DNA from: an uncultured Alphaproteobacteria bacterium
GTDB lineage: Bacteria > Pseudomonadota > Alphaproteobacteria > Rhizobiales > Aestuariivirgaceae
NCBI GenBank assembly: GCA_963754675.1
Contig: CAVWHD010000026.1
Coordinates: 199,298 to 263,297 of the forward strand
Direction: 5' to 3'
DNA length: 64,000 bases
This document shows, piece by piece, positions 5,647 through 63,115 of this stretch (the stretch's first letter is position 1; every line of letters begins with the position of its first letter). Below the pieces are notes generated by a model. The model made no database searches. It was not told the DNA's origin and saw only the letters and a list, made by a program, of their open reading frames with translations. The position numbers and the translations under genes were made by a program.

Positions 5647-5748
5647 CAATTCTGTCATTGCCGGGCTTGTCCCGGCAACCCATCGTTTGGCAATACCGGT
5701 GCCCGGCGAAACATGGGTCGCCGGAATAAATCCGGCGATGACAATTGA
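5647..5748. repeat. REPIN-like inverted pair of GTCA-tagged palindromic repeats
   Basis: TGTCATTGCCGGGCTTGTCCCGGCAACCCA (5653-5682) and inverted TGGGTCGCCGGAATAAATCCGGCGATGACA (5714-5743). Confidence 0.8.
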
Positions 5749-8805: not shown

Positions 8806-8953
8806 CGTCATTCCGGCAAAGGCGTGTTTTGCGAAGCAAAACAATAGCCCTTTATCCGGCAACCCAGCCTAGGGCGGTTGCCGCAATGACAGAAAGCTGG
8901 GTTCCAGATCGCTCGCTTCCGTTTGCTTCGCAAACAGTCGAGCTGGAATGACG
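8806..8953. repeat. CGTC-tagged REPIN-like inverted pair with nested hairpins
   Basis: CGTCATTCCGGC...CCGGCAACCCAGC and GCTGGGTTCCAG...CTGGAATGACG; internal GTTTTGCGAAGCAAAAC and GTTTGCTTCGCAAAC hairpins. Confidence 0.7.
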
Positions 8954-15255: not shown

Positions 15256-15385
15256 GATGGTGCTCCCGTGTGAATGGCCTCAGAATAGAGCAAGGCAGAG
15301 TCCGTGTACACTCCCGCATGCAGTCTCGTTATCCGGCCAGGGATTCTATGAAGAAACGATGGCATCGCCGTTTTGGACCAATAGT

Positions 15386-15480
15386 AGCGGGATGCCAGCT
15401 TTCGCTGGCAAGACGGGATGAGGAGGTGCATTAATTTGACTCACACTTTTCGTCTCCCCAGCGAAAGCTGGGGTCCCGCT
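15386..15480. repeat. Solo CGTC-REP doublet (GIY-YIG-associated family)
   Basis: AGCGGGATGCCAGCTTTCGCTGGCAAGACG (15386-15415) and CGTCTCCCCAGCGAAAGCTGGGGTCCCGCT (15451-15480). Confidence 0.9.
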
Positions 15481-15554
15481 TTTTTCCGCAATTTCGTTTT
15501 GGCTGGCCCCTAAGCCGATCTTTTCACAACCTCTTTTCCAGAGTGACGGAACTC

Positions 15555-16846: not shown

Positions 16847-16929
16847 CGTCCTGCCAGCGAAAGCTGGCACCCCGCTTTTTGCTTGAAATAGCGCAAGAAA
16901 GCGGGACCCCAGCGGGCGCTGGGGTGACG
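16847..16929. repeat. Solo CGTC-REP doublet, convergent orientation
   Basis: CGTCCTGCCAGCGAAAGCTGGCACCCCGCT (16847-16876) and AGCGGGACCCCAGCGGGCGCTGGGGTGACG (16900-16929). Confidence 0.85.
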
Positions 16930-27976: not shown

Positions 27977-30298
27977 ATGCATGTCTCTTTGCGCACAACC
28001 GTCTCTGCCTTGGCTTTGGCAGCCACAATTGCAATTGCACCACCGGCGAAGGCAAACGAATTTCCCCCCGCCATCGATCTCTCAACCCTCAACGGCTTGA
28101 CCGGCTTCCGCCTTGACGGCATCGATATCAGTGACTACAGCGGCATTTCCGCCGCCGCGGCGGGCGATGTCAACGGCGACGGCTTCGGCGACCTCGTCAT
28201 CGGCGCCAGTGGCGGCGATCCAAACGGGGATCTCTCCGCTGGAGAGAGCTATGTGGTGTTCGGCAAGGGCCCGTCTTCGGGCGGCTTCGCCTCGGCCATC
28301 GATCTAGGCGGCCTGAACGGCACCACCGGCTTCCGCCTCGATGGCATCGATGCCGGCGACTTGAGCGGCATTTCCGCCGCCGCGGCGGGCGATGTCAACG
28401 GCGACGGCTTCGACGACCTCGTCATCGGCGCCAGTAGCGGCGATCCAAACGGGGATCTCTCCGCTGGAGAGAGCTATGTGGTGTTCGGCAAGGGCCCGTC
28501 TTCGGGCGGCTTTGCCCAGGCCATTGATCTAGGTAGCCTGAACGGCTCGACTGGCTTCCGCCTCGATGGCATCGATGCCGGCGACTTTAGCGGCCGTTCC
28601 GTCGCTTCGGCGGGCGATGTCAACGGCGACGGCTTCGGCGATATCGTCATCGGCGCCTGGGGCGGCGATCCGAACGGCGATTCCTATGCCGGCGAGAGCT
28701 ATGTGGTGTTCGGCAAGGCTTCGGGCTTCGCCTCGGCCATCGATCTAGGCTCCCTCAATGGCTCGACCGGCTTCCGCCTCGACGGCATCGATGTCAACGA
28801 CGAGAGCGGCCGTTCCGCCGCCGCGGCGGGTGATGTCAACGGCGACGGCTTCGGCGACCTCGTCATCGGCGCCTGGGGCGGCGATCCGAACGGCGATTCC
28901 TATGCCGGGGAGAGCTATGTGGTGTTCGGCAAGGCTTCGGGCTTCGCCTCGGCCATCGATCTAGGCAGCCTGAACGGCTCGACCGGCTTCCGCCTTGACG
29001 GCATCGATGCCGACGACCGCAGCGGCCGTTCCGTCGCATCGGCGGGCGATGTCAACGGCGACGGCTTCGGCGATATCGTCATCGGCGCCAGGGGCGGCGA
29101 TCCGAACGGCGATTCCTCTGCCGGGGAGAGCTATGTGGTGTTCGGCAAGGGCCCGTCTTCGGGCGGCTTTGCCTCGGCCATCGATCTCGCCAGCCTGAAC
29201 GGCACCACCGGCTTCCGCCTCGATGGCATCGATGCCACTGACTACAGCGGCCGTTCCGTCGCATCGGCGGGCGATGTCAACGGCGACGGCTTCGGCGACC
29301 TCGTCATCGGCGCCTGGGGCGGCGATCCGAACGGCGATTCCTCTGCCGGGGAGAGCTATGTGGTGTTCGGCAAGGGCCCGTCTTCGGGTGGCTTCACCTC
29401 GGCCATCGATCTCGCCAGCCTGAACGGCACCACCGGCTTCCGCCTCGACGGCATCGATATCCGTGACTACAGCGGCCTTTCCGTCGCTTCGGCGGGCGAT
29501 GTCAACGGCGACGGCTTCGGCGATATCGTCATCGGCGCCGAGGGCGGTGATCCAAACGGCGATTCCAATGCTGGCGAGAGCTATGTGGTGTTCGGCCGCG
29601 CTCCCGATGCTGCCGTGACTCGGTCCGGCTCAGCGGCCGCGCAATACATCAGCGGCGGCGCCTTTGCCGACACACTGTCGGGATTAGACGGTAAAGATCG
29701 CCTGGAAGGCCGCGCCGGACCTGACAAGCTCGACGGCGGCGATGGCAGCGATACCGCGAGCTACGCCCATGCTCCAACCGCTGTTCGGGCCAGCCTCGCC
29801 TCACCGGGAGCCAATACCGGCGATGCCGCAGGCGATAAGTATCTTTCGATCGAAAATCTCGAAGGCTCCCGCTTCGGAGACAAACTGGTCGGCAATGATT
29901 CCGCTAACCGCTTCATCGGCGGCAAGGGCCGCGACGCTCAAACCGGCGGCGGCGGAACAGACGTATTCCAGCTCTTGAGGCCAAGCGACAGCAAGCCCGG
30001 CACGCAGCACGACATCATAACGGATTTCAACGCTGGAGATGCTGGCACCAGCTTCGACAAAATCGATCTCTCGGCCATCGACGCCAAGACAGGCGTGGGC
30101 GGCAACCAGGCCTTCACCTTCATCGGAACCGCCCCCTTCAGCGGCGCCAAGGGCCAGCTCCGGACTTCACTCAATACAGCCGGAACCTCAACCATCGTTC
30201 AAGGCGACGTCAACGGCGACAAGAGTCCCGATTTCGAAATCCTCCTCCAAGGCCTCACCGCGCTTGCGAACCTCACGAGCATCGACTTTGTGAGGTAA
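27977..30298 (+). CDS. Secreted FG-GAP (integrin-alpha-like) beta-propeller protein with RTX Ca-binding repeats and a serralysin-like C-terminal domain
   Basis: Signal peptide ...PAKA|NEF; 7 x AGDVNGDGFxDxxIGA repeats; GGxGxD nonamers; DKIDLSAIDA...QAFTFIG...VQGDVNGD..PDFEI tail. Confidence 0.9.
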   Translation: MHVSLRTTVSALALAATIAIAPPAKANEFPPAIDLSTLNGLTGFRLDGIDISDYSGISAAAAGDVNGDGFGDLVIGASGGDPNGDLSAGESYVVFGKGPSSGGFASAIDLGGLNGTTGFRLDGIDAGDLSGISAAAAGDVNGDGFDDLVIGASSGDPNGDLSAGESYVVFGKGPSSGGFAQAIDLGSLNGSTGFRLDGIDAGDFSGRSVASAGDVNGDGFGDIVIGAWGGDPNGDSYAGESYVVFGKASGFASAIDLGSLNGSTGFRLDGIDVNDESGRSAAAAGDVNGDGFGDLVIGAWGGDPNGDSYAGESYVVFGKASGFASAIDLGSLNGSTGFRLDGIDADDRSGRSVASAGDVNGDGFGDIVIGARGGDPNGDSSAGESYVVFGKGPSSGGFASAIDLASLNGTTGFRLDGIDATDYSGRSVASAGDVNGDGFGDLVIGAWGGDPNGDSSAGESYVVFGKGPSSGGFTSAIDLASLNGTTGFRLDGIDIRDYSGLSVASAGDVNGDGFGDIVIGAEGGDPNGDSNAGESYVVFGRAPDAAVTRSGSAAAQYISGGAFADTLSGLDGKDRLEGRAGPDKLDGGDGSDTASYAHAPTAVRASLASPGANTGDAAGDKYLSIENLEGSRFGDKLVGNDSANRFIGGKGRDAQTGGGGTDVFQLLRPSDSKPGTQHDIITDFNAGDAGTSFDKIDLSAIDAKTGVGGNQAFTFIGTAPFSGAKGQLRTSLNTAGTSTIVQGDVNGDKSPDFEILLQGLTALANLTSIDFVR
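28070..29600 (+). repeat. Seven intragenic tandem repeats of 225 or 216 nt
   Basis: Units start at 28070, 28295, 28520, 28736, 28952, 29177 and 29402; near-identical at the DNA level. Confidence 0.95.
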
Positions 30299-33799: not shown

Positions 33800-34806
33800 T
33801 CCGCAAAGCTCTTGAGGCGGTCGTAAAGAGCCCGCTCGATTGGCAGGCCCTCGCGCTTCAACCGATTCTGGTTGGCCTCGCGCCGCGCATTGGGCATGCG
33901 CGCGCCTGGCTGAGAAACGATGGATTTGATCAGCGCCTTGATCTGCTTGTCGAACAGGCCGCCGGAAAATATCTTGGGTTCTAGTGCAATGAAGAACTGC
34001 CCGTTGCCCACCGGTTTGCCGTCATCATCCACGACCGAGCCCATCTCAGGCCCGAGCCTAGCGCCTGCCAGTGCCGCCGACATGACCTCTACGATCAGGC
34101 CCTGGCCAAAGCCCTTGTAGCCACCGGAGGGAGCCATCGAACCGTCAAGGCCCTCATGCGGATTGGTGGTGGGCGTCCCCAATTTATCCAGCGCCCAGCC
34201 AAGTGGAATTTCACGGCTCTCTTCCGCCGCCCGCTTCACCGCCGTCCACGCCACCGCCGACGACGATTGATCGACGAGAAAAGCGATCTTGCCCCGAGGA
34301 CCCGGCACCGCGAAGGACAGAGGATTGGTGCCGATCACCGGCTTGCTGCCGCCCACCGGCGCAATGGTGGGCGGCGCATTGGTGAAGCCGAAGGCCACCA
34401 GCCCGCGCTTGGCCAGATAGCCCGTATGATACCCCAGCGTTGCGCAGTTATAGGAATTGTAGACGGCCATGCCGGCGATGCCATGCTTGAGTGCCGCCGG
34501 AATGAGTTTGGCGAAACCCTGCTCGATAGCCGGATGAGCGAAGCCCTGGCGCGCATCAACCCGCAACGCCACCGGCGTGAGGCGCTTGACCATCGCTCTC
34601 GCTCGCCCGTCAACTTTGCCGCTCTTCGCATGTTGGCAATAGAACTGCAGCCAGTAGAACCCGTGGCCAGCCAGCCCAGAAAGCTCCGTATCGAGAATGG
34701 CATCGCTGAAATACCCTGCATTCCCCGCCGAGGTGCCCGCCCCCGTCAAGGCGTCGAAAATCAGCTTCCGTGCCTTCGCTGGACTGAGCGTCAATGCTTC
34801 CGACAT
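33796..34806 (-). CDS. Ldh_2 family oxidoreductase (AllD/ComC/DpkA-like)
   Basis: GLAGHG, GTNPLSFAVP, DQSSS, GWALDKLG, GGYKGFG, GQFFIALEP. Confidence 0.9.
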   Translation of the reverse strand: MSEALTLSPAKARKLIFDALTGAGTSAGNAGYFSDAILDTELSGLAGHGFYWLQFYCQHAKSGKVDGRARAMVKRLTPVALRVDARQGFAHPAIEQGFAKLIPAALKHGIAGMAVYNSYNCATLGYHTGYLAKRGLVAFGFTNAPPTIAPVGGSKPVIGTNPLSFAVPGPRGKIAFLVDQSSSAVAWTAVKRAAEESREIPLGWALDKLGTPTTNPHEGLDGSMAPSGGYKGFGQGLIVEVMSAALAGARLGPEMGSVVDDDGKPVGNGQFFIALEPKIFSGGLFDKQIKALIKSIVSQPGARMPNARREANQNRLKREGLPIERALYDRLKSFAE

Positions 34807-34889
34807 TGCTAACTCCGCTTCCTAACCACTACCTTCAACAGACATCGCCGGCTCTGCGCCGTCAAGCGATAGAATAATTCGATGCCCAA

Positions 34890-34987
34890 AGCGGGATGCC
34901 AGCTGGAGTTTACCCCCGGACTCGATCCGGGGGCTGGCAAGACGGTATTAAAAAGTCCGTCACCCCAACGAAAGTTGGGGTCCCGCT
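34890..34987. repeat. Two CGTC-REPs at the 3' side of the GIY-YIG gene
   Basis: 34890-34944 (REP with a CCCCCGGACTCGATCCGGGGG hairpin in its loop) and CGTCACCCCAACGAAAGTTGGGGTCCCGCT at 34958-34987, abutting the stop codon. Confidence 0.9.
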
Positions 34988-35308
34988 TTAGTCTTCAACC
35001 AGCGTCGCCACGGTATCAATACTGTCATGAAGGTCATGCCACTCCGGATTCATTCTTTCGACCAACTCAATCTTCCAGGCACGCCTCCATGCTTTGATCT
35101 GCTTCTCGCGCTTAATTGCCCCTTCCATGGACTGCCTGTGCTCATACCAAACCAGCAGCTTCACTTCGTACTTCGATGTGAAACCGGGCGTCGTGCCGTT
35201 CTTGTGATCGCACACCCGCGACCAGAGAGCGCTGGTTACACCAACATAAAGCGTACCGCGATACCGGCTTGCCATGATGTAATCGGCAGGGTGCTTCTCA
35301 AGAGCCAT
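34988..35308 (-). CDS. Stand-alone GIY-YIG nuclease
   Basis: YIMASRYRGTLYVGVT...RV.DH...FTSKY.V..LVWYE...AIKREKQIKAWRRAWKIELVE..NP.W.DL. Confidence 0.9.
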   Translation of the reverse strand: MALEKHPADYIMASRYRGTLYVGVTSALWSRVCDHKNGTTPGFTSKYEVKLLVWYEHRQSMEGAIKREKQIKAWRRAWKIELVERMNPEWHDLHDSIDTVATLVED

Positions 35309-35340
35309 GACCAGCAGGCAATACCATGTATTTCAGCCAA

Positions 35341-35461
35341 AGCGGGATGCCAGCTTTCGCTGGCAAGACGGTACTAAAAGAAGGTCCGTCCCCCCAACGA
35401 AAGTTGGGGTCCCGCTTTACCCTTTGACCAAAGCGGGATGCCAGCTTTCGCTGGCAAGACG
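35341..35461. repeat. Three alternating CGTC-REPs at the 5' side of the GIY-YIG gene
   Basis: 35341-35370, 35387-35416 and 35432-35461; the first and third are identical (AGCGGGATGCCAGCTTTCGCTGGCAAGACG). Confidence 0.9.
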
Positions 35462-35562
35462 GGCTGAGTAAGGGTAGGAATTTAGACGGCATCATTTTCA
35501 CGTTGCGCCGGTTGCGGGCTTACCTCATTATCCCCGGCAATGGTCCAACAGAGGCCGTAGGG

Positions 35563-36503
35563 ATGGGTATGCTGATACTTGCCGCGCGGCGTCTGGCGTC
35601 GATGATCCTGATCATGCTGGTGATCTCGGTCCTGCTGTTCGTCTTTTTCGAAGGCGACAAGCTCAACCTCGCCATGCGGGTGCTTGGCCCGTACTCCACC
35701 ATGGAAGGCAGGCTCCAGTGGCTTGAGGACAATGGCTACAATCGCAACATCCTGACCCGCTATTTCTCCTGGCTCTATGGATTTCTGACCGGCGACTGGA
35801 AGGAATCGGCCCAGTTCAGCGCGCCGGTCTTCGATTTCCTTCTGCCACGGCTGAAGAACACCGCCATTCTCGGCCTCTGCGTTTTCCTGCTCACCGTCGG
35901 CATTTCGCTGGTGCTGGGCGTCCTCTCCGGCATCGCCGAGGCGTCGTCTGCGCGACCGCACCATCACCGTGCTGTCGGTGCTCACCACGTCGGTTCCGGA
36001 ATTTGCCTCCGCCACATTCCTCGTCGCCATCTTCGTCTATCTGGCTCGATTGGCTGCCGGGATCGTCATCATTCTCCAACGGCTTTGCCTGGAACGAACT
36101 GGTGCTGCCGGTGGCGGCCCTGGTGATCTACAATTTCGGCTACTACACCCGCATGACCAGGGCTTCCATGGCGGAGGTCATGGGCTCGCAATATGTCCGC
36201 ACCGCCGTTCTCAAGGGCCTGCCCTATGGCCGCGTCATCATGCGCCACGCTCTCCGCAATGCCCTGATCGCGCCCTTCACCGTGATGATCCTGCAGCTCA
36301 ACTATCTGCTCTCCGGCGTGGTGGTGACCGAGGTGTTCTTCGCCTATGACGGCTACGGCAAGGCGCTCTACCAGGCCGCCATGTTCGGCGACGTCTATCT
36401 GATCCTCGCCGGCGCCATGATCGCCGTTGTCGTCGCCGTGCTGTCGCAGTTCATCTCCGACATCGGCTACACCTTTCTCAACCCCCGCATCCGCTTCGCA
36501 TAG
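35563..36503 (+). CDS. Dpp/Opp-type ABC permease B (frameshifts at ~35948 and ~36040)
   Basis: TRMTRASMAEVMGSQYVRTAVLKGL (EAA loop), VVTEVFFAYDGYG, LNPRIRFA. Confidence 0.88.
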
Positions 36504-36514
36504 GGAAGCAGCCG

Positions 36515-37456
36515 ATGACCGATGTTGCCGCCTCCCCGCCCCGCGCCAGCCGCCTCTCCAAGTTCCTGCGCGCCTTGGGGCTCTGCGCGAATCGCCGCAT
36601 CGGCATGCTGGGCGCATTCCTGGTGCTGTTCTGGATCCTCGTCGCCATCTTCGCCGACCTGCTGCCGCTCTATGATCCGCTCGCCCAGTCGGCGCCCGAT
36701 CTGTTGAAGCCCGCCTTGTCGCCCGCCCCCGATGGCGGCACCTACTGGCTGGGCACCGACGACAAGGGCCGCGATATCCTCTCGCGCCTGTTCTTCGGCT
36801 CGCGCCTGGTGCTGTTCTGGTCGGGTTTCGCAACCGTCGTGGCCTATGCCGTCGGCATGCTGATGGGCGTGGCGGCCGGCTATCGCGGCGGCTGGTGGGA
36901 CGAGATCATTTCCTTCATCGGCAACGTCTTTTTGGCCTTCCCCCAGATGGTGCTCTACATCGTCATCCTCTCCCAGCTGGGGTCCGATTCCCCCGTCGGC
37001 CAATGGCTGGGCGCCGCGGGCTTCACCACCGTCTGGGTCAAGGGCCTGACCATCGTGCTGGCCGTCATGTTTGCAACCGCCCCCCAGGTTGCCCGCATCG
37101 TCCGCGGCATCGTCCTCGACCTCAAGACCCGCGATTATGTCGCCGCCGCCGAGGTGCGCGGCGAAAGCCCGCTCTACATCATGATCGTCGAACTCCTGCC
37201 CAATGCCAGGGGGCCGCTGATCGTCGATGCCTGCCTCCGCCTCGGCTACGTCACCATCGCCATCGCCGCCCTGGGCTTCCTCGGGCTGGGCCTGCCGCCG
37301 CCCGATCCCGACTGGGGCAAGATGATCTCCGAAGTGAGAGGCTTCGGCGCCATGGCCGCCAACGCCATGATCTGGCCGGCGCTGGCAATCTCCACTCTGG
37401 TTCTCGGCCTCAACCTGCTGGCCGATGGCCTCCGCGAAATTTCCCTGAGGGACTGA
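36515..37456 (+). CDS. Dpp/Opp-type ABC permease C
   Basis: LGTDDKGRDILSRL, RDYVAAAEVRGE, LGFLGLG.PPP.PDWG. Confidence 0.92.
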   Translation: MTDVAASPPRASRLSKFLRALGLCANRRIGMLGAFLVLFWILVAIFADLLPLYDPLAQSAPDLLKPALSPAPDGGTYWLGTDDKGRDILSRLFFGSRLVLFWSGFATVVAYAVGMLMGVAAGYRGGWWDEIISFIGNVFLAFPQMVLYIVILSQLGSDSPVGQWLGAAGFTTVWVKGLTIVLAVMFATAPQVARIVRGIVLDLKTRDYVAAAEVRGESPLYIMIVELLPNARGPLIVDACLRLGYVTIAIAALGFLGLGLPPPDPDWGKMISEVRGFGAMAANAMIWPALAISTLVLGLNLLADGLREISLRD

Positions 37457-37459
37457 GCC

Positions 37460-39543
37460 ATGGTGACGCCGGTTCTCGAATGCAAAAACCTCTCGATCTC
37501 CTATTACACCCGTGCCGGTGAAGTGCCCGCCGTCTATGACTTCAATCTGACGGTGGATCCTGGCGAAGCCGTCGGCATTGTCGGCGAATCGGGCTGCGGC
37601 AAGTCCACCGTGGCGCTCGCCATCATGCAGTATATGGGCAAGAACGGCGCCATTACCGGCGGGGCCATCAACTTCCTCGGCCGCGACATGCGCGCCATGT
37701 CCGAGGAAGAGCTCCGCCAGATCCGCGGCTCGCAGATCGCCATGGTCTACCAGGAGCCCATGGCCTCGCTCAACCCGTCCATGCTGATCCGCGACCAGCT
37801 GATCGAAGTGCCGATGGTCCATGAAGGCATCGATGCGGCGGCGGCGGAAAAGCGCGCCGTCGAGCTGCTCGAAGCCGTCCGCCTGCCCGACCCCACGCGC
37901 ATTCTCAATTCCTACCCGCACCAGCTCTCCGGCGGCCAGCAGCAGCGCGCCGTCATCGCCATGGCGCTGCTGTCCAACCCCAAGCTGCTCCTGCTCGATG
38001 AGCCCACCACGGCGCTCGATGTGACGGTGGAAGCAGGCGTCGTCGAATTGATCAAGGACATCGCCAAGCGCTTCGGCACTTCGATGATCTACATCTCCCA
38101 CAATCTAGGCCTCATCCTCGAGACCTGCGACCGCATCTGCGTCATGTATTCCGGCCAGTCGGTGGAACTGGGCTCGGTCAAGCAGGTCTTCGACCACATG
38201 CGCCACCCCTATACTCGCGGGCTGTTTTCCTCGATCCCGCTGCCGGGGACCGACCGCTTCGCCCACCCCCTGGTGCCGATCCGCGGGCAATTGCCCCTGC
38301 CGCGCGACCGGCCGAAGGGCTGCACCTTCGGGCCGCGCTGCGATTTCTTCAGGGAAGGCGCAATGCGATCCGCCCCAGCACATGGCGCCCATCAAGGGCG
38401 ATGCCGGCCACCAGGTCCGCTGCGCCCGCTACGCCGAGATCGACTGGAGCAAGCACAGGCCGAAAGGCATCGAGAGCGAGCCCATGCAGCCCGGCAAGGT
38501 GGTGCTGCAAGTCAGGGACATGAAGAAATATTACGAAATTCGCGACAGCTCGCTCGCCGCGCTGTTTTCCGGCAAGGGCTCGCGCTTCGTGAAGGCCAAT
38601 GAAAAGCTCGATTTCGAAGCCCGCGAGGCCGAGACCGTGGCCATCGTCGGCGAATCCGGTTGCGGCAAGTCGACCTTCGCCAAGGTGCTGATGGGGCTTG
38701 AAACCACAACCGGCGGCGAAGTGCTGGTGAACGGCCTCGACGTGGGCTCGCTGCCGGTTAAGAAACGCCCGGCGGGATTGATTTCGAGCTTGCAGATCGT
38801 TTTCCAGAATCCCTTCGAAACCCTCAATCCCAGCCATTCGGTGGGTGCCCAGATCGGCCGTGTACTGAAGAAATTCGGCGTCGCCAAGACGCCGCGACGA
38901 GATTGAACGAAAAACCTACGAACTCCTCGATCTGGTGAAACTGCCGCGCGAGTTCGCCGCCCGCAAGCCGCGCCAGCTCTCCGGCGGCCAGAAGCAGCGG
39001 ATCGGCATCGCCCGCGCTTTCGGCGGTAATGCCACCCTCGTCGTTGCCGACGAACCTGTCTCGGCCCTCGATGTCTCGGTGCAGGCCGCCGTCACCGGAT
39101 TGTTGACCGACATCCAGCGCAAGAAACGCACCACCATGGTGTTCATCAGCCATGATCTCTCGGTGGTGCGTTATCTCGCCGACCGCATCGTCGTCATGTA
39201 TCTGGGCCGCATCATGGAACAGGGCACCACCGATCAGGTCTTCGCCCCGCCCTATCACCCCTATACGGAAGCACTGCTCTCGGCCGTGCCGATCGCCGAT
39301 ACCTCGGTCAAGAAGAAGCACATCGTGCTCAAGGGCGAACTGCCCTCGCCGATGAACCCGCCTCCTGGCTGCCCGTTCCAGACCCGTTGCCCGCGCAAGA
39401 TCGGCGCCATCTGCGAAACCGAACTTCCCCCGGTTCAGGAATTGGCGCCCGGCCACAAGATCATGTGCCACATCCCGGAAAAAGAATTGCGCAAGATGGA
39501 GCCGGTGATCACTTTTCAAAAAGCCGCGAAGGCCAAAGCCTGA
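37460..39543 (+). CDS. Dpp/Opp-type ABC ATPase with two fused ATPase domains (frameshifts at ~38370 and ~38895)
   Basis: Two GESGCGKST Walker A motifs, LSGGQ signatures, HPYT and GC.F..RC tails. Removing single bases joins three ORFs. Confidence 0.85.
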
Positions 39544-41594: not shown

Positions 41595-41710
41595 CCCCAT
41601 TTCCGTCATTCCGGCGAAAGCCGGAACCCATGGCGGGGAAGCGCAAAACGCCGATGTTGTAAATATATGGACGATGGGTTCCGGCTTTCGCCGGAATGAC
41701 GGAAATGGGG
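41595..41710. repeat. CGTC-REPIN long inverted repeat between convergent genes
   Basis: CCCCATTTCCGTCATTCCGGCGAAAGCCGGAACCCA ... TGGGTTCCGGCTTTCGCCGGAATGACGGAAATGGGG (perfect arms). Confidence 0.9.
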
Positions 41711-41777: not shown

Positions 41778-42936
41778 CTACCCCGCCGCTTCCAGGATCG
41801 ACACCAACGACGCCACATCGAGCTTGCGCGGATTGCAGCCGGCATTGAAATCCGGCAGCGCCATCACCGCCAGGCGCTGAAAATCCTGCCGCGCCACGCC
41901 GATATCGGTGATCTTGGCGGGAATTCCGATGCGCCGCGAGAGCTTCGAGACTTCGGCAAAATAGGCATCGAAGCTGGGCTCAAGTCCCATATGGGCCGCA
42001 AGTGCTGCAACCGGCTTTTCGATGGCCGGGCGGTTAAACTGCAGCACATGGGGCATCAGCACCGCATTGGTGAGCCCGTGCTGGGTTCCAACAAGCGCGC
42101 CGATCGCATGGCTCAACGCATGCATTGCGCCGAGACCCTTGACGAACGAAGTGGCCCCCATGATCGCCGCCGCCATCATGTAACTCCGCGCCACGATGTC
42201 ATCGCCTTGTTCGACGGCACGAGGTAAAAAGTCATGACACATCTTGACGCCTACCGCCCCGATGGCATCGGCCATCGGATGGAACTGCCGCACCACCAGC
42301 GCTTCGAGATTGTGCGACAGCGCATCCATGCCGGTCCACGCCGTCAAATTGCGCGGCAGCGACAGCGTCAGCTCCGGATCGGCGATGACAACGCGAGGCA
42401 TCATCGAAAGATTGACGATCCCGGCCTTCACCGGTTTCGAGGGGTCGGTAATGATGCCGCTCGCCTCTACCTCCGCGCCGGTGCCCGCCGTCGTCGGAAT
42501 GGCGATGATCGGCACCTTGCTGCGTTCGGCCTGCACTTCAATGCTGCGCGGGTAGGCAAAGCGCCATAGATCGCCGCCCAGCCCCGCCACCAGCGCCACC
42601 GACTTGCCGCAGTCGAGCCCACTGCCGCCGCCCAGCGCAATAACGCAATCGGCCTTGGCGATCATGAAAGGCAGCGACTCCCGCCATGACCTGATCGCCA
42701 GTGGGATTCTGGTCGCAGCCGTCCCACATCGTGCTGCCGCGTGCGAGCGAGGCAACGCGCCGCGGAATCCCCGTTGCCGCGAGCCCCCGGTCGGTAACGA
42801 TCAGCGGCCGCTTGCTGCCAAGCAGATCGAGAATGCCCGGCAATTCCGCGATGCGGCCAGCGCCAAAGCGCGTTTCGGTCGGGAAAAGCCAGTCGCCGCG
42901 AAGGTCCTCCGCCGAGCTGAATTGCCAGAACGTCAT
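41778..42936 (-). CDS. Iron-containing alcohol dehydrogenase (frameshift at ~42660)
   Basis: GGGSGLD, IPTTAGTGAE, DPELT, GMDALSHNLE, GAMHALSH...HGLTNA. Confidence 0.9.
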
Positions 42937-62853: not shown

Positions 62854-62907
62854 GCGGCTTGCAGTTGAGAACCGCCGCTCAAATCAGGAAGATGTTGTGG
62901 AAAGAGC

Positions 62908-63003
62908 AGCGGGATGCCAGCTTTCGCTGGCATGACGGGTGAGGGGATATAATTTGATTTACCTCACTTTTTCCGTCGCCCCAGCGAAAGCTGGGGTCCC
63001 GCT
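62908..63003. repeat. Solo CGTC-REP doublet between the SBP and permease genes
   Basis: AGCGGGATGCCAGCTTTCGCTGGCATGACG (62908-62937) and CGTCGCCCCAGCGAAAGCTGGGGTCCCGCT (62974-63003); the spacer resembles that of 15386-15480. Confidence 0.9.
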
Positions 63004-63115
63004 TCTCCCCGCCAGTTCGCAGATGTGGCCATTAGCCGAATTCTTCACAACCCCGAAAGCCGGAATCCAGCTTGCGCCGGGGTGACGGGTCCGGTGTCAA
63101 ATCGGGGGACAATCC

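Follow-up and report, generated by a model that had tools for sequence, protein, structure and literature searches.

A Probable Ssn-Type GIY-YIG Nuclease Gene among Alternating CGTC-Tagged Hairpin Repeats in an Uncultured Hyphomicrobiales Bacterium

Results

The Nuclease Gene and Its Flanking Repeats

This study concerns a small nuclease gene and the hairpin repeats around it in a stretch of 64,000 nucleotides from an uncultured Alphaproteobacteria bacterium of the Aestuariivirgaceae (assembly GCA_963754675.1, contig CAVWHD010000026.1, positions 199,298 to 263,297), here called the window. The gene is the only GIY-YIG gene within the 64-kb window. Its position on the chromosome is intergenic, with an Ldh_2-like gene on one side and an ABC-transporter operon on the other. 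Five copies of a CGTC-tagged repeat unit flank it, two on the 3' side and three on the 5' side. A preliminary description of this DNA had reported the five units and their two alternating variants; both were seen in the sequence, and the strands were found to alternate together with the variants. The gene and the units are as follows.

34988..35308, minus strand: ssn-like gene encoding a 106-aa single-domain GIY-YIG nuclease (open reading frame (ORF), Pfam, BLASTP and 81-protein alignment)
34888..34946, minus strand: unit A, 3' of the gene, with the GAAA loop swapped for a 29-nt segment that has its own hairpin, CCCCGGA-tcgag-TCCGGGG
34958..34990, plus strand: unit B directly 3' of the gene, whose tail CCCGCTTTA overlaps the stop codon; tag away from the gene
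35339..35370, minus strand: unit A, 30 nt 5' of the ATG, tag away from the gene; matched by the published string for Ssn-related motifs (SRMs, see below)
35387..35418, plus strand: unit B, in a tail-to-tail doublet with 35430-35461
35430..35461, minus strand: unit A, the outermost on the 5' side (from the sequence and the published SRM string)

Each unit is about 33 nt long and, read from the tag, consists of C-CGTC, an 8-nt arm, GAAA, the complementary 8-nt arm and CCCGCT(TT). Variant A is C-CGTC-(T/A)TGCCAGC-GAAA-GCTGGCA(T)-CCCGCT(TT), and variant B is C-CGTC-NCCCCA(A/G)C-GAAA-G(T/C)TGGGG(T)-CCCGCT(TT); the tag (C)CGTC is present in all units. In the orientation of the gene, the order is A> <B A> [gene>] <B A>, and the tags of the inner pair (34958-34990 and 35339-35370) face outward from the gene. 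These two units bound the cassette, and the homology to the related loci L001-L004 stops there. The last three bases of unit 34958-34990 are the stop codon of the gene. The single-unit DNA hairpins are stable, at -7.5 to -9 kcal/mol each; unit 34958-34990 folds at -9.0 kcal/mol (z -3.9), and the loop-expanded unit 34888-34946 at -16.6 kcal/mol (z -3.4).

Identity of the Encoded Protein

Chenal et al. (Nat Commun 2025, PMC11893778) described the Ssn family of single-domain GIY-YIG nucleases, of about 94 aa (CDD cd10448), whose genes are flanked by CGTC-tagged hairpins. The Neisseria repeat is called NTS, CGTCATTCCCGCGMAVGCGGGAATCYRG, and the general name of these repeats is SRMs. Four purified members bound their own motif as single-stranded DNA (ssDNA) only, in one orientation, and cut a few nt upstream of it. 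The enzymes recognise the hairpin and the C that follows, are inactive on duplex DNA, RNA and the complementary orientation, and do not depend on the identity of the loop for cleavage; the substitutions Y6A, Y17A and E64A abolish cutting by SsnA (PMC11893778).

The sole Pfam match of the 106-aa protein from the window was PF01541, the GIY-YIG catalytic domain (E 2.5e-10, residues 10-80). When a plasmid collection of 7.3 Gb was searched with this protein by tblastn, an N. gonorrhoeae chromosome that had been deposited as a plasmid was matched (E 1e-23). The match is a 94-aa ORF with Y6, Y17 and E64, and 16 NTS copies lie in the 3.2 kb around it. BLASTP aligned the two proteins without gaps at 47/88 identical residues (53%; E 4e-34) and paired Y10, Y21 and E68 of the window protein with Y6, Y17 and E64 of SsnA, the SsnA of this comparison being the gonococcal orthologue and not the meningococcal protein. 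Chenal et al. placed proteins in the Ssn family at E < 1e-10 to Neisseria SsnA, and both E values obtained here are lower. At 106 aa and with one Pfam match, the protein also has the size (about 94-110 aa) and the lack of an extra domain that mark the family. Two N. gonorrhoeae records of 2.17 Mb, L336 (NZ_CP119140.1) and NZ_CP119142.1, were found filed as plasmids in spite of their chromosomal size.

In the alignment of 81 homologues, G18, Y21, G23, R31, H35, E68 and N87 were at least 98% conserved, and the same was true of a C-terminal block, W74/R76/W78/K79. Y21 and E68 reached 99-100% and Y10 70-90%. These conserved catalytic residues indicate that the active site is intact. Searches of NCBIfam and of PDB sequences with the window protein gave no matches, and an exact look-up of it in public assemblies returned no record. 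Near-identical sequence fragments are present in freshwater-sediment metagenomes, and the nearest homologues among the 80 loci described below, together with their repeats, belong to metagenome-assembled genomes (MAGs) of Aestuariivirga and other Hyphomicrobiales.

Conservation of the Gene-Repeat Link in Other Genomes

We collected 80 homologue loci from species-representative genomes, whose proteins are 52-77% identical to that of the window. A tagged hairpin occurred within 400 nt upstream of the gene in 55/80, downstream in 62/80 and on both sides in 47/80, and in the last group the tags usually face outward. A pattern scan aimed at Neisseria ssnA (NTS followed by a GTLY motif) gave 120 loci in many phyla, and the 95 that have a homologue brought the set to 182 genes. 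In this set, the nearest downstream unit was on the opposite strand in 103 cases vs 20, and the nearest upstream unit was on the same strand in 109 vs 19, a figure that is partly ascertained by the scan pattern. The single match of the scan in Neisseriaceae (Conchiformibius, L244) is an NTS doublet without the gene. At the gonococcal ssnA orthologue the nearest NTS units point tags-inward, unlike those of most homologues.

Arm sequences vary by protein lineage, and their changes are compensatory; the tag and the C that follows the stem are invariant. A covariation test of the stem was positive; since the units had been chosen as hairpins, the percentage of paired positions is partly circular, and the informative part of the test is only how diverse the arms are next to a constant tag and tail. 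L002 and L003, the closest relatives, have TGCCAGC/CCCCAGC arms and the CCCGCT tail, like the window. Other genomes contain the exact repeat core in at least 99 stretches; among the matches listed, nearly all are from Aestuariivirga-like MAGs, and in L097, L122, L135 and L173 a GIY-YIG homologue directly adjoins the repeat. The window units are also short CGTC-ended stem-loops repeated in the genome, as in the CGTC-tagged repetitive extragenic palindromes (REPs). Taken together, the data support a link between gene and repeats that is specific and conserved.

For the homologue P0073 (contigs L330-L335), many metagenome contigs were seen to stop about 10-220 nt past the GIY-YIG gene. Such ends are expected if the flanking repeats break short-read assemblies, and surveys of MAGs would then under-count cassettes.

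Repeats Elsewhere in the Window

The core CGAAAGYTGGSRTCCCGCT, allowing up to two mismatches, occurs 9 times in the window vs 0.01 expected from shuffles: at 15386(-), 15462(+), 16858(+), 34969(+), 35341(-), 35398(+), 35432(-), 62908(-) and 62985(+). Unit 34888-34946 escaped this search, because its loop is enlarged by the 29-nt hairpin. With the degenerate string published for SRMs, the window gave 9 matches, where random sequence gave 0.5. Among them are both arms of the doublet at 41.6 kb and, on the 5' side of the gene, the two A units; the B units (CCCCAAC) are missed. All repeats of the window are intergenic, and those away from the gene are listed here.

15384..15482: head-to-head doublet of A at 15384-15415 (minus) and B at 15451-15482 (plus) with a 35-nt spacer; a degenerate third tagged unit ends at 15549
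16847..16929: tail-to-tail doublet of A' at 16847-16878 (plus) and B' at 16897-16929 (minus), tags outward, with a spacer of about 20 nt between the tails
62905..63087: head-to-head doublet of A at 62905-62937 (minus) and B at 62974-63005 (plus), with a third tagged unit at 63059-63087 (minus)
41604..41701: second-family tail-to-tail doublet, CGTCATTCCGGCGAAAGCCGGAACCCAT, near the Neisseria NTS consensus; the published SRM string matches each of its arms
5653..5743: tail-to-tail doublet of the second family, its tags TGTC and its tails CCCAT
8806..8953: units of the second family with the extra hairpins TTTTGCGAAGCAAAA and GTTTGCGAAGCAAAC in their loops (from the sequence)

The preliminary description had pointed to gene-free doublets at 15.4, 16.9 and 62.9 kb, of which the first and last share their spacer, and this held: six gene-free copies of the unit lie there. 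The element at 62905-63087 is paralogous to that at 15384-15549, with a common spacer and about 100 nt to the right in common, including the third, degenerate unit. The two doublets are therefore copies of a larger composite. The doublet at 15384-15482 folds at -31.9 kcal/mol (z -7.5) and that at 16847-16929 at -32.3 kcal/mol (z -5.8), the two tags of the latter pairing with each other. The doublet at 16847-16929 shares the geometry of the gene cassette, with a spacer in place of the gene.

Related repeats at 5653-5743, 8806-8953 and 41604-41701, which had also been noted before, are present and belong to a second family with the arm ATTCCGGC and the tail CCCAT/CCCAG. No cognate nuclease gene for this family was found in the window, and a second Ssn paralogue would be expected elsewhere in the genome. 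A weak tblastn match at 41789-41863, beside one of its doublets, was considered as a decayed nuclease gene and rejected, as it lies inside an intact 325-aa ORF. In three units (34888-34946, 8806-8867 and 8896-8953), the 4-nt loop is replaced by a self-folding segment of 29-35 nt; nested insertions seem to be tolerated in the hairpin loops, or drawn to them.

An Rfam scan of the whole window gave no family matches. A terminator scan of 34700-35600 gave one match, where 1.1 are expected from shuffles; it is a weak stem of 5 bp that overlaps unit 35387-35418 at its tag end, and the promoter and terminator scan around the gene showed nothing informative.

Organisation and Presence/Absence of the Doublets

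The organisation of the repeats was assessed over the window plus 748 kb of loci that carry repeats. The 230 units form 80 doublets, 41 singletons and a few longer arrays. Among 102 adjacent pairs, 82 are tail-to-tail, 20 head-to-head and none direct. The tail-to-tail pairs have their tags outward and spacers of 8-37 nt (mode 27), and two different arm types are usually joined in one such doublet. For some of these doublets, different genomes have in common both the spacer and the outer flank, the latter over at least 12 nt. The geometry of the gene cassette is that of a tail-to-tail doublet with the gene as spacer. In the complete Aestuariivirga chromosome L177 (NZ_OZ245771.1, 264-272 kb), positions 960-1700 carry five tail-to-tail doublets at intervals of about 140 nt; their outer flanks are conserved, and the whole resembles an array of bacterial interspersed mosaic elements (BIME-like).

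Orthologous intergenic sites vary between species in whether they carry a doublet. In L172, a 96-nt intergenic region holds a 68-nt doublet, and the orthologous site in L090 is 9 nt long. In L153, a head-to-head doublet lies in a region of about 250 nt, and there is none at the orthologous intergenic site in L086. No target-site duplication was visible at these two sites, in a comparison between species in which the junctions are blurred.

Genomic Setting and Mobility of the Cassette

Between the window and its closest relatives (L001-L005 and L173), only the cassette is homologous, up to the flanking units. The neighbouring genes differ in the window and in each of these relatives, and the context of the cassette changes across genera. 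The G+C content of the gene is 53% vs 62% for the window, in the lowest 3% of equal-sized windows. Synteny with relatives held from about position 30.3 kb of the window up to the Ldh_2-like gene (34806) and was lost precisely at the cassette. The ABC-transporter operon (35503-39400 in the window) lies upstream of Ldh_2 in the same orientation in L312 and L340, and this position indicates that the cassette (34807-35502) marks an inversion junction.

Other observations speak against an element that actively copies itself. The surroundings of the gene are syntenic in L097, L122 and L135, where one unit stands on each side of it with the tag outward, and one homologue of 72% identity was found in 24 contigs from many samples, each time with the same neighbours (soxA, soxG / gene / MTHFR-like). 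No empty cassette site was recovered with the Ldh_2-like gene as anchor from species genomes and metagenomes, where the best relatives are 74-78% identical. The contigs of four metagenome runs on 33800-36600 were low-depth fragments only, and the repeats had raised depth and other flanks. No excision was seen in these four runs; a lone joint (35371/35462, opposite strands, in one X2 contig) links two units without skipping the element.

Some evidence favours movement of the cassette over long time scales. Its pattern, with a single copy in the window, a syntenic lineage of three genomes and one locus fixed in a sampled population, resembles that of the REP-associated tyrosine transposases (RAYTs) and their REP doublets forming hairpins (REPINs) more closely than that of an insertion sequence (IS).

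Two observations were made on neighbouring genes. Beside the cassette, the first ABC permease is broken into two ORFs, 35503-36126 and 36003-36503, which overlap and are in different frames. This suggests a frameshift, from either a pseudogene or an assembly error. The ORF at 27977-30298 (773 aa) contains a 225-bp unit repeated 6.7 times at 89% identity (28100-29596); it encodes repeats of the type DGDGFGD...GA..GGD, which look FG-GAP/VCBS-like.

Discussion

Relation to the Ssn/SRM System

The link between a GIY-YIG gene and CGTC-tagged REPs that the preliminary description had drawn is correct but not new, as the Ssn/SRM system (NTS-ssnA-NTS) was published in 2025 (PMC11893778). The present locus is a new example of this system and is distinguished by its own pair of arms and its unusual CCCGCT tail. 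Both have a single-domain GIY-YIG protein of about 100 aa, with 53% identity between the window protein and gonococcal SsnA and with the Y/Y/E catalytic positions in common. In both, the gene lies among intergenic, scattered repeats of the layout CGTC, 8-nt arm, 4-nt loop, 8-nt arm and C, and the second repeat family of the window nearly matches the NTS consensus. In agreement with the family description, at least one SRM in the sense of the published degenerate string lies within 500 bp of the gene, at 35343-35370(-) and 35434-35461(-). The locus differs in its arms, TGCCAGC and CCCCAAC in alternation, in its tail, CCCGCT vs CYRG, and in the nearest units, which are tags-outward here and in most homologues and tags-inward at the gonococcal locus. 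The host is an uncultured freshwater Hyphomicrobiales bacterium.

Several points weigh against assigning the locus to this system and its repeats to the action of the enzyme. The AlphaFold2 model was poor (pLDDT 50, pTM 0.33, from a 40-sequence alignment of homologues 69-86% identical), too poor for a fold search or for structural confirmation. The published SRM string matches the units of the 5' side only and misses the 3' units 34958-34990 (CCCCAAC) and 34888-34946 (loop-expanded), and units stand on both sides of the gene by the consensus of the locus itself and the NTS layout (CGTC, 8, 4, 8, C). The tail is CCCGCT vs the common CCAG, from which it follows that the specificity must differ from that of Neisseria SsnA. 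Finally, the case for a possible role of the nuclease in spreading the repeats is one of association. Weighing these points against the alignment and the conserved link, we consider it likely, as one joint reading drawn from the sequences, that the 106-aa ORF encodes an SsnA-like member of the Ssn family and predicted site-specific ssDNA endonuclease, that the CGTC-tagged hairpins are its cognate SRMs, and that the nuclease and the doublets stand in a RAYT/REPIN-like relation.

Comparison with Other Systems

By analogy, a RAYT/REPIN-like relation is the most likely one between nuclease and doublets. As in that system, a single-copy gene is flanked by its own hairpins and often vertically inherited at a fixed locus, and the repeats are mainly dispersed as inverted doublets with family-specific spacers; we found 82/20/0 tail-to-tail, head-to-head and direct pairs, one gene copy in the window and the fixed locus in 24 contigs. 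Recognition of a hairpin with a tetranucleotide tag on ssDNA would also be common to both, if the window protein acts like the Ssn enzymes. The differences lie in the enzyme and the tag. RAYTs are HUH/Y1 transposases with a covalent intermediate, whereas the protein here is a hydrolytic nuclease with GIY-YIG as its only Pfam domain, and the tag is CGTC here vs GTAG.

Di Nocera et al. surveyed the CGTC-tagged REP superfamily in 2013, including the Rickettsia palindromic elements, and reported no dedicated transposase for it (PMC3733652). The window repeats share with it the short CGTC-tagged stem-loops, the occurrence in Alphaproteobacteria and the dimers in head-to-head or tail-to-tail arrangement. 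The difference is that a dedicated nuclease gene adjoins the repeats here and in the Ssn paper, in which no citation of the 2013 survey was found (PMC11893778). Elements of the IS200/IS605 type likewise have subterminal hairpins recognised on ssDNA and a small gene between them, but their hairpins are on the same strand at both ends, their enzyme is a Y1 HUH transposase and they are multi-copy; here the hairpins are inverted, the enzyme is of the GIY-YIG type and the gene is single-copy in the window. GIY-YIG homing endonucleases of the I-TevI type have the same pattern of catalytic core residues (Y, Y, R, H, E, N). The window protein differs from them in having no separate DNA-binding domain, its gene is located outside introns and inteins, and nothing implies that it makes double-strand cuts at an allelic empty site.

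A Possible Mechanism

If the protein behaves like the four Ssn enzymes tested in vitro, it would bind the hairpin and the C-rich tail after the stem, as ssDNA only and only on the strand that reads CGTC-stem-loop-stem-CC, and the nick would fall a few nt 5' of the tag, through Y10/Y21/R31/E68 and Mg2+. With the tags outward, a cassette or doublet would have a cleavage site just beyond either end, the two sites lying on opposite strands. Where units alternate in an array, cutting one strand at two successive sites would free one tail-to-tail doublet. Such release could account for the repeats recurring as doublets and never as direct pairs. The catalysis of GIY-YIG nucleases is hydrolytic, and no strand-transfer or rejoining activity is known among them. 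Because of this hydrolytic catalysis, rejoining would have to come from host functions. We presume that a single-copy, mostly resident nuclease would coexist with a population of inverted doublets that it recognises, and that it probably influences their gain and loss.

A bolder proposal, which we hold as tentative and rather doubtful, is that Ssn nucleases are the mobilising enzymes long missing for the CGTC-tagged REP superfamily as a whole and that the tail-to-tail doublet is the moving unit. The tags of a freed doublet would pair and bring its ends together, as in the fold of 16847-16929, and the doublet would be reinserted through ligation or replication by the host; the cassette would then be a doublet with the gene as its spacer. 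The preliminary description had called mobilisation by the GIY-YIG enzyme not established, and the literature search agrees: no later work showing mobilisation by Ssn enzymes was found.

Alternative Explanations

The preliminary description had proposed an autonomous master element with non-autonomous doublets. In its full form, the cassette would be an autonomous IS-like transposon with the GIY-YIG protein as its transposase, and the doublets would be derivatives that it actively moves, like miniature inverted-repeat transposable elements. Part of this proposal stood. The gene-repeat link is conserved, inverted tagged units bound the cassette and the homology to the closest relatives stops at them, the gene neighbourhoods differ in the window, L001-L005 and L173, the G+C content is low (53% vs 62%, lowest 3% of windows), the cassette sits exactly at a synteny break, and the tail-to-tail doublets mimic it without the gene. 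An insertion sequence would be expected to have several near-identical copies per genome and target-site duplications, and the master-element proposal agrees poorly with other observations: there is one copy in the 64 kb, one homologue keeps identical neighbours in 24 contigs, L097, L122 and L135 are syntenic around their copy, and no duplication was seen at the two presence/absence sites, which were compared between species and have blurred junctions. Hydrolytic catalysis with no known rejoining activity is a further argument against a transposase. Chenal et al. noted an IS-like architecture and had already raised the IS-like origin and domestication of Ssn as a hypothesis, and the same work found that characterised Ssn enzymes cut ssDNA only and in one motif orientation (PMC11893778), from which only one end of the cassette would be cleavable on any one strand. 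On this evidence, we regard an actively transposing IS-like element as improbable.

Another explanation is that the nuclease mainly controls incoming or exposed ssDNA in transformation, conjugation or repair and limits recombination near the repeats, which would be selected marks of the host. SsnA lowers the transformation of N. meningitidis by NTS-containing DNA (PMC11893778), the window protein is clearly homologous and its active site is intact, and all window repeats are intergenic. This explanation leaves unaccounted for the near-exclusive inverted doublets with family-specific spacers common to genomes, as well as the gene being nearly always embedded between two units. As the whole account we judge it possible but unlikely, clearly ahead of the IS-like transposon; it is compatible with the RAYT/REPIN-like relation and does not exclude it. 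By analogy with SsnA, a role in limiting the recombination of incoming ssDNA near the repeats, as an alternative or an addition to the release of doublets, may equally apply. The hairpins may instead be ordinary cis elements, such as terminators, stabilisers of mRNA or protein-binding sites, with the nuclease next to them by coincidence. They do lie just past stop codons or in 5' leaders and fold stably, and REPs in other bacteria have such roles (PMC3733652). Coincidental adjacency is already contradicted by the conserved association, which recurs in 47-62/80 homologue loci from several phyla with a preferred geometry and lineage-matched arms. Moreover, four family members bind and cut their own flanking motif (PMC11893778), the sole terminator-like match in 34700-35600 does not exceed the 1.1 expected from shuffles, and Rfam gave no match. 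We give this last explanation very little credence.

Significance

The locus bears on the CGTC-tagged REPs as a whole. The 2013 survey found no dedicated enzyme for them, and the Ssn association supplies a candidate. If the mobilising proposal is true, a transposition-like process would be driven by a hydrolytic GIY-YIG nuclease, and none such has been described. The clade of the present bacterium would be a reasonable one for testing nuclease-driven spread of repeats, as it has strict inverted doublets, composites common to several genomes and presence/absence differences. Ssn enzymes are the first known site-specific ssDNA nucleases, and each new pair of enzyme and motif is a candidate tool with a new specificity. 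The locus described here adds a probable pair of this kind, in which the arms alternate between two variants and the tail is the unusual CCCGCT.

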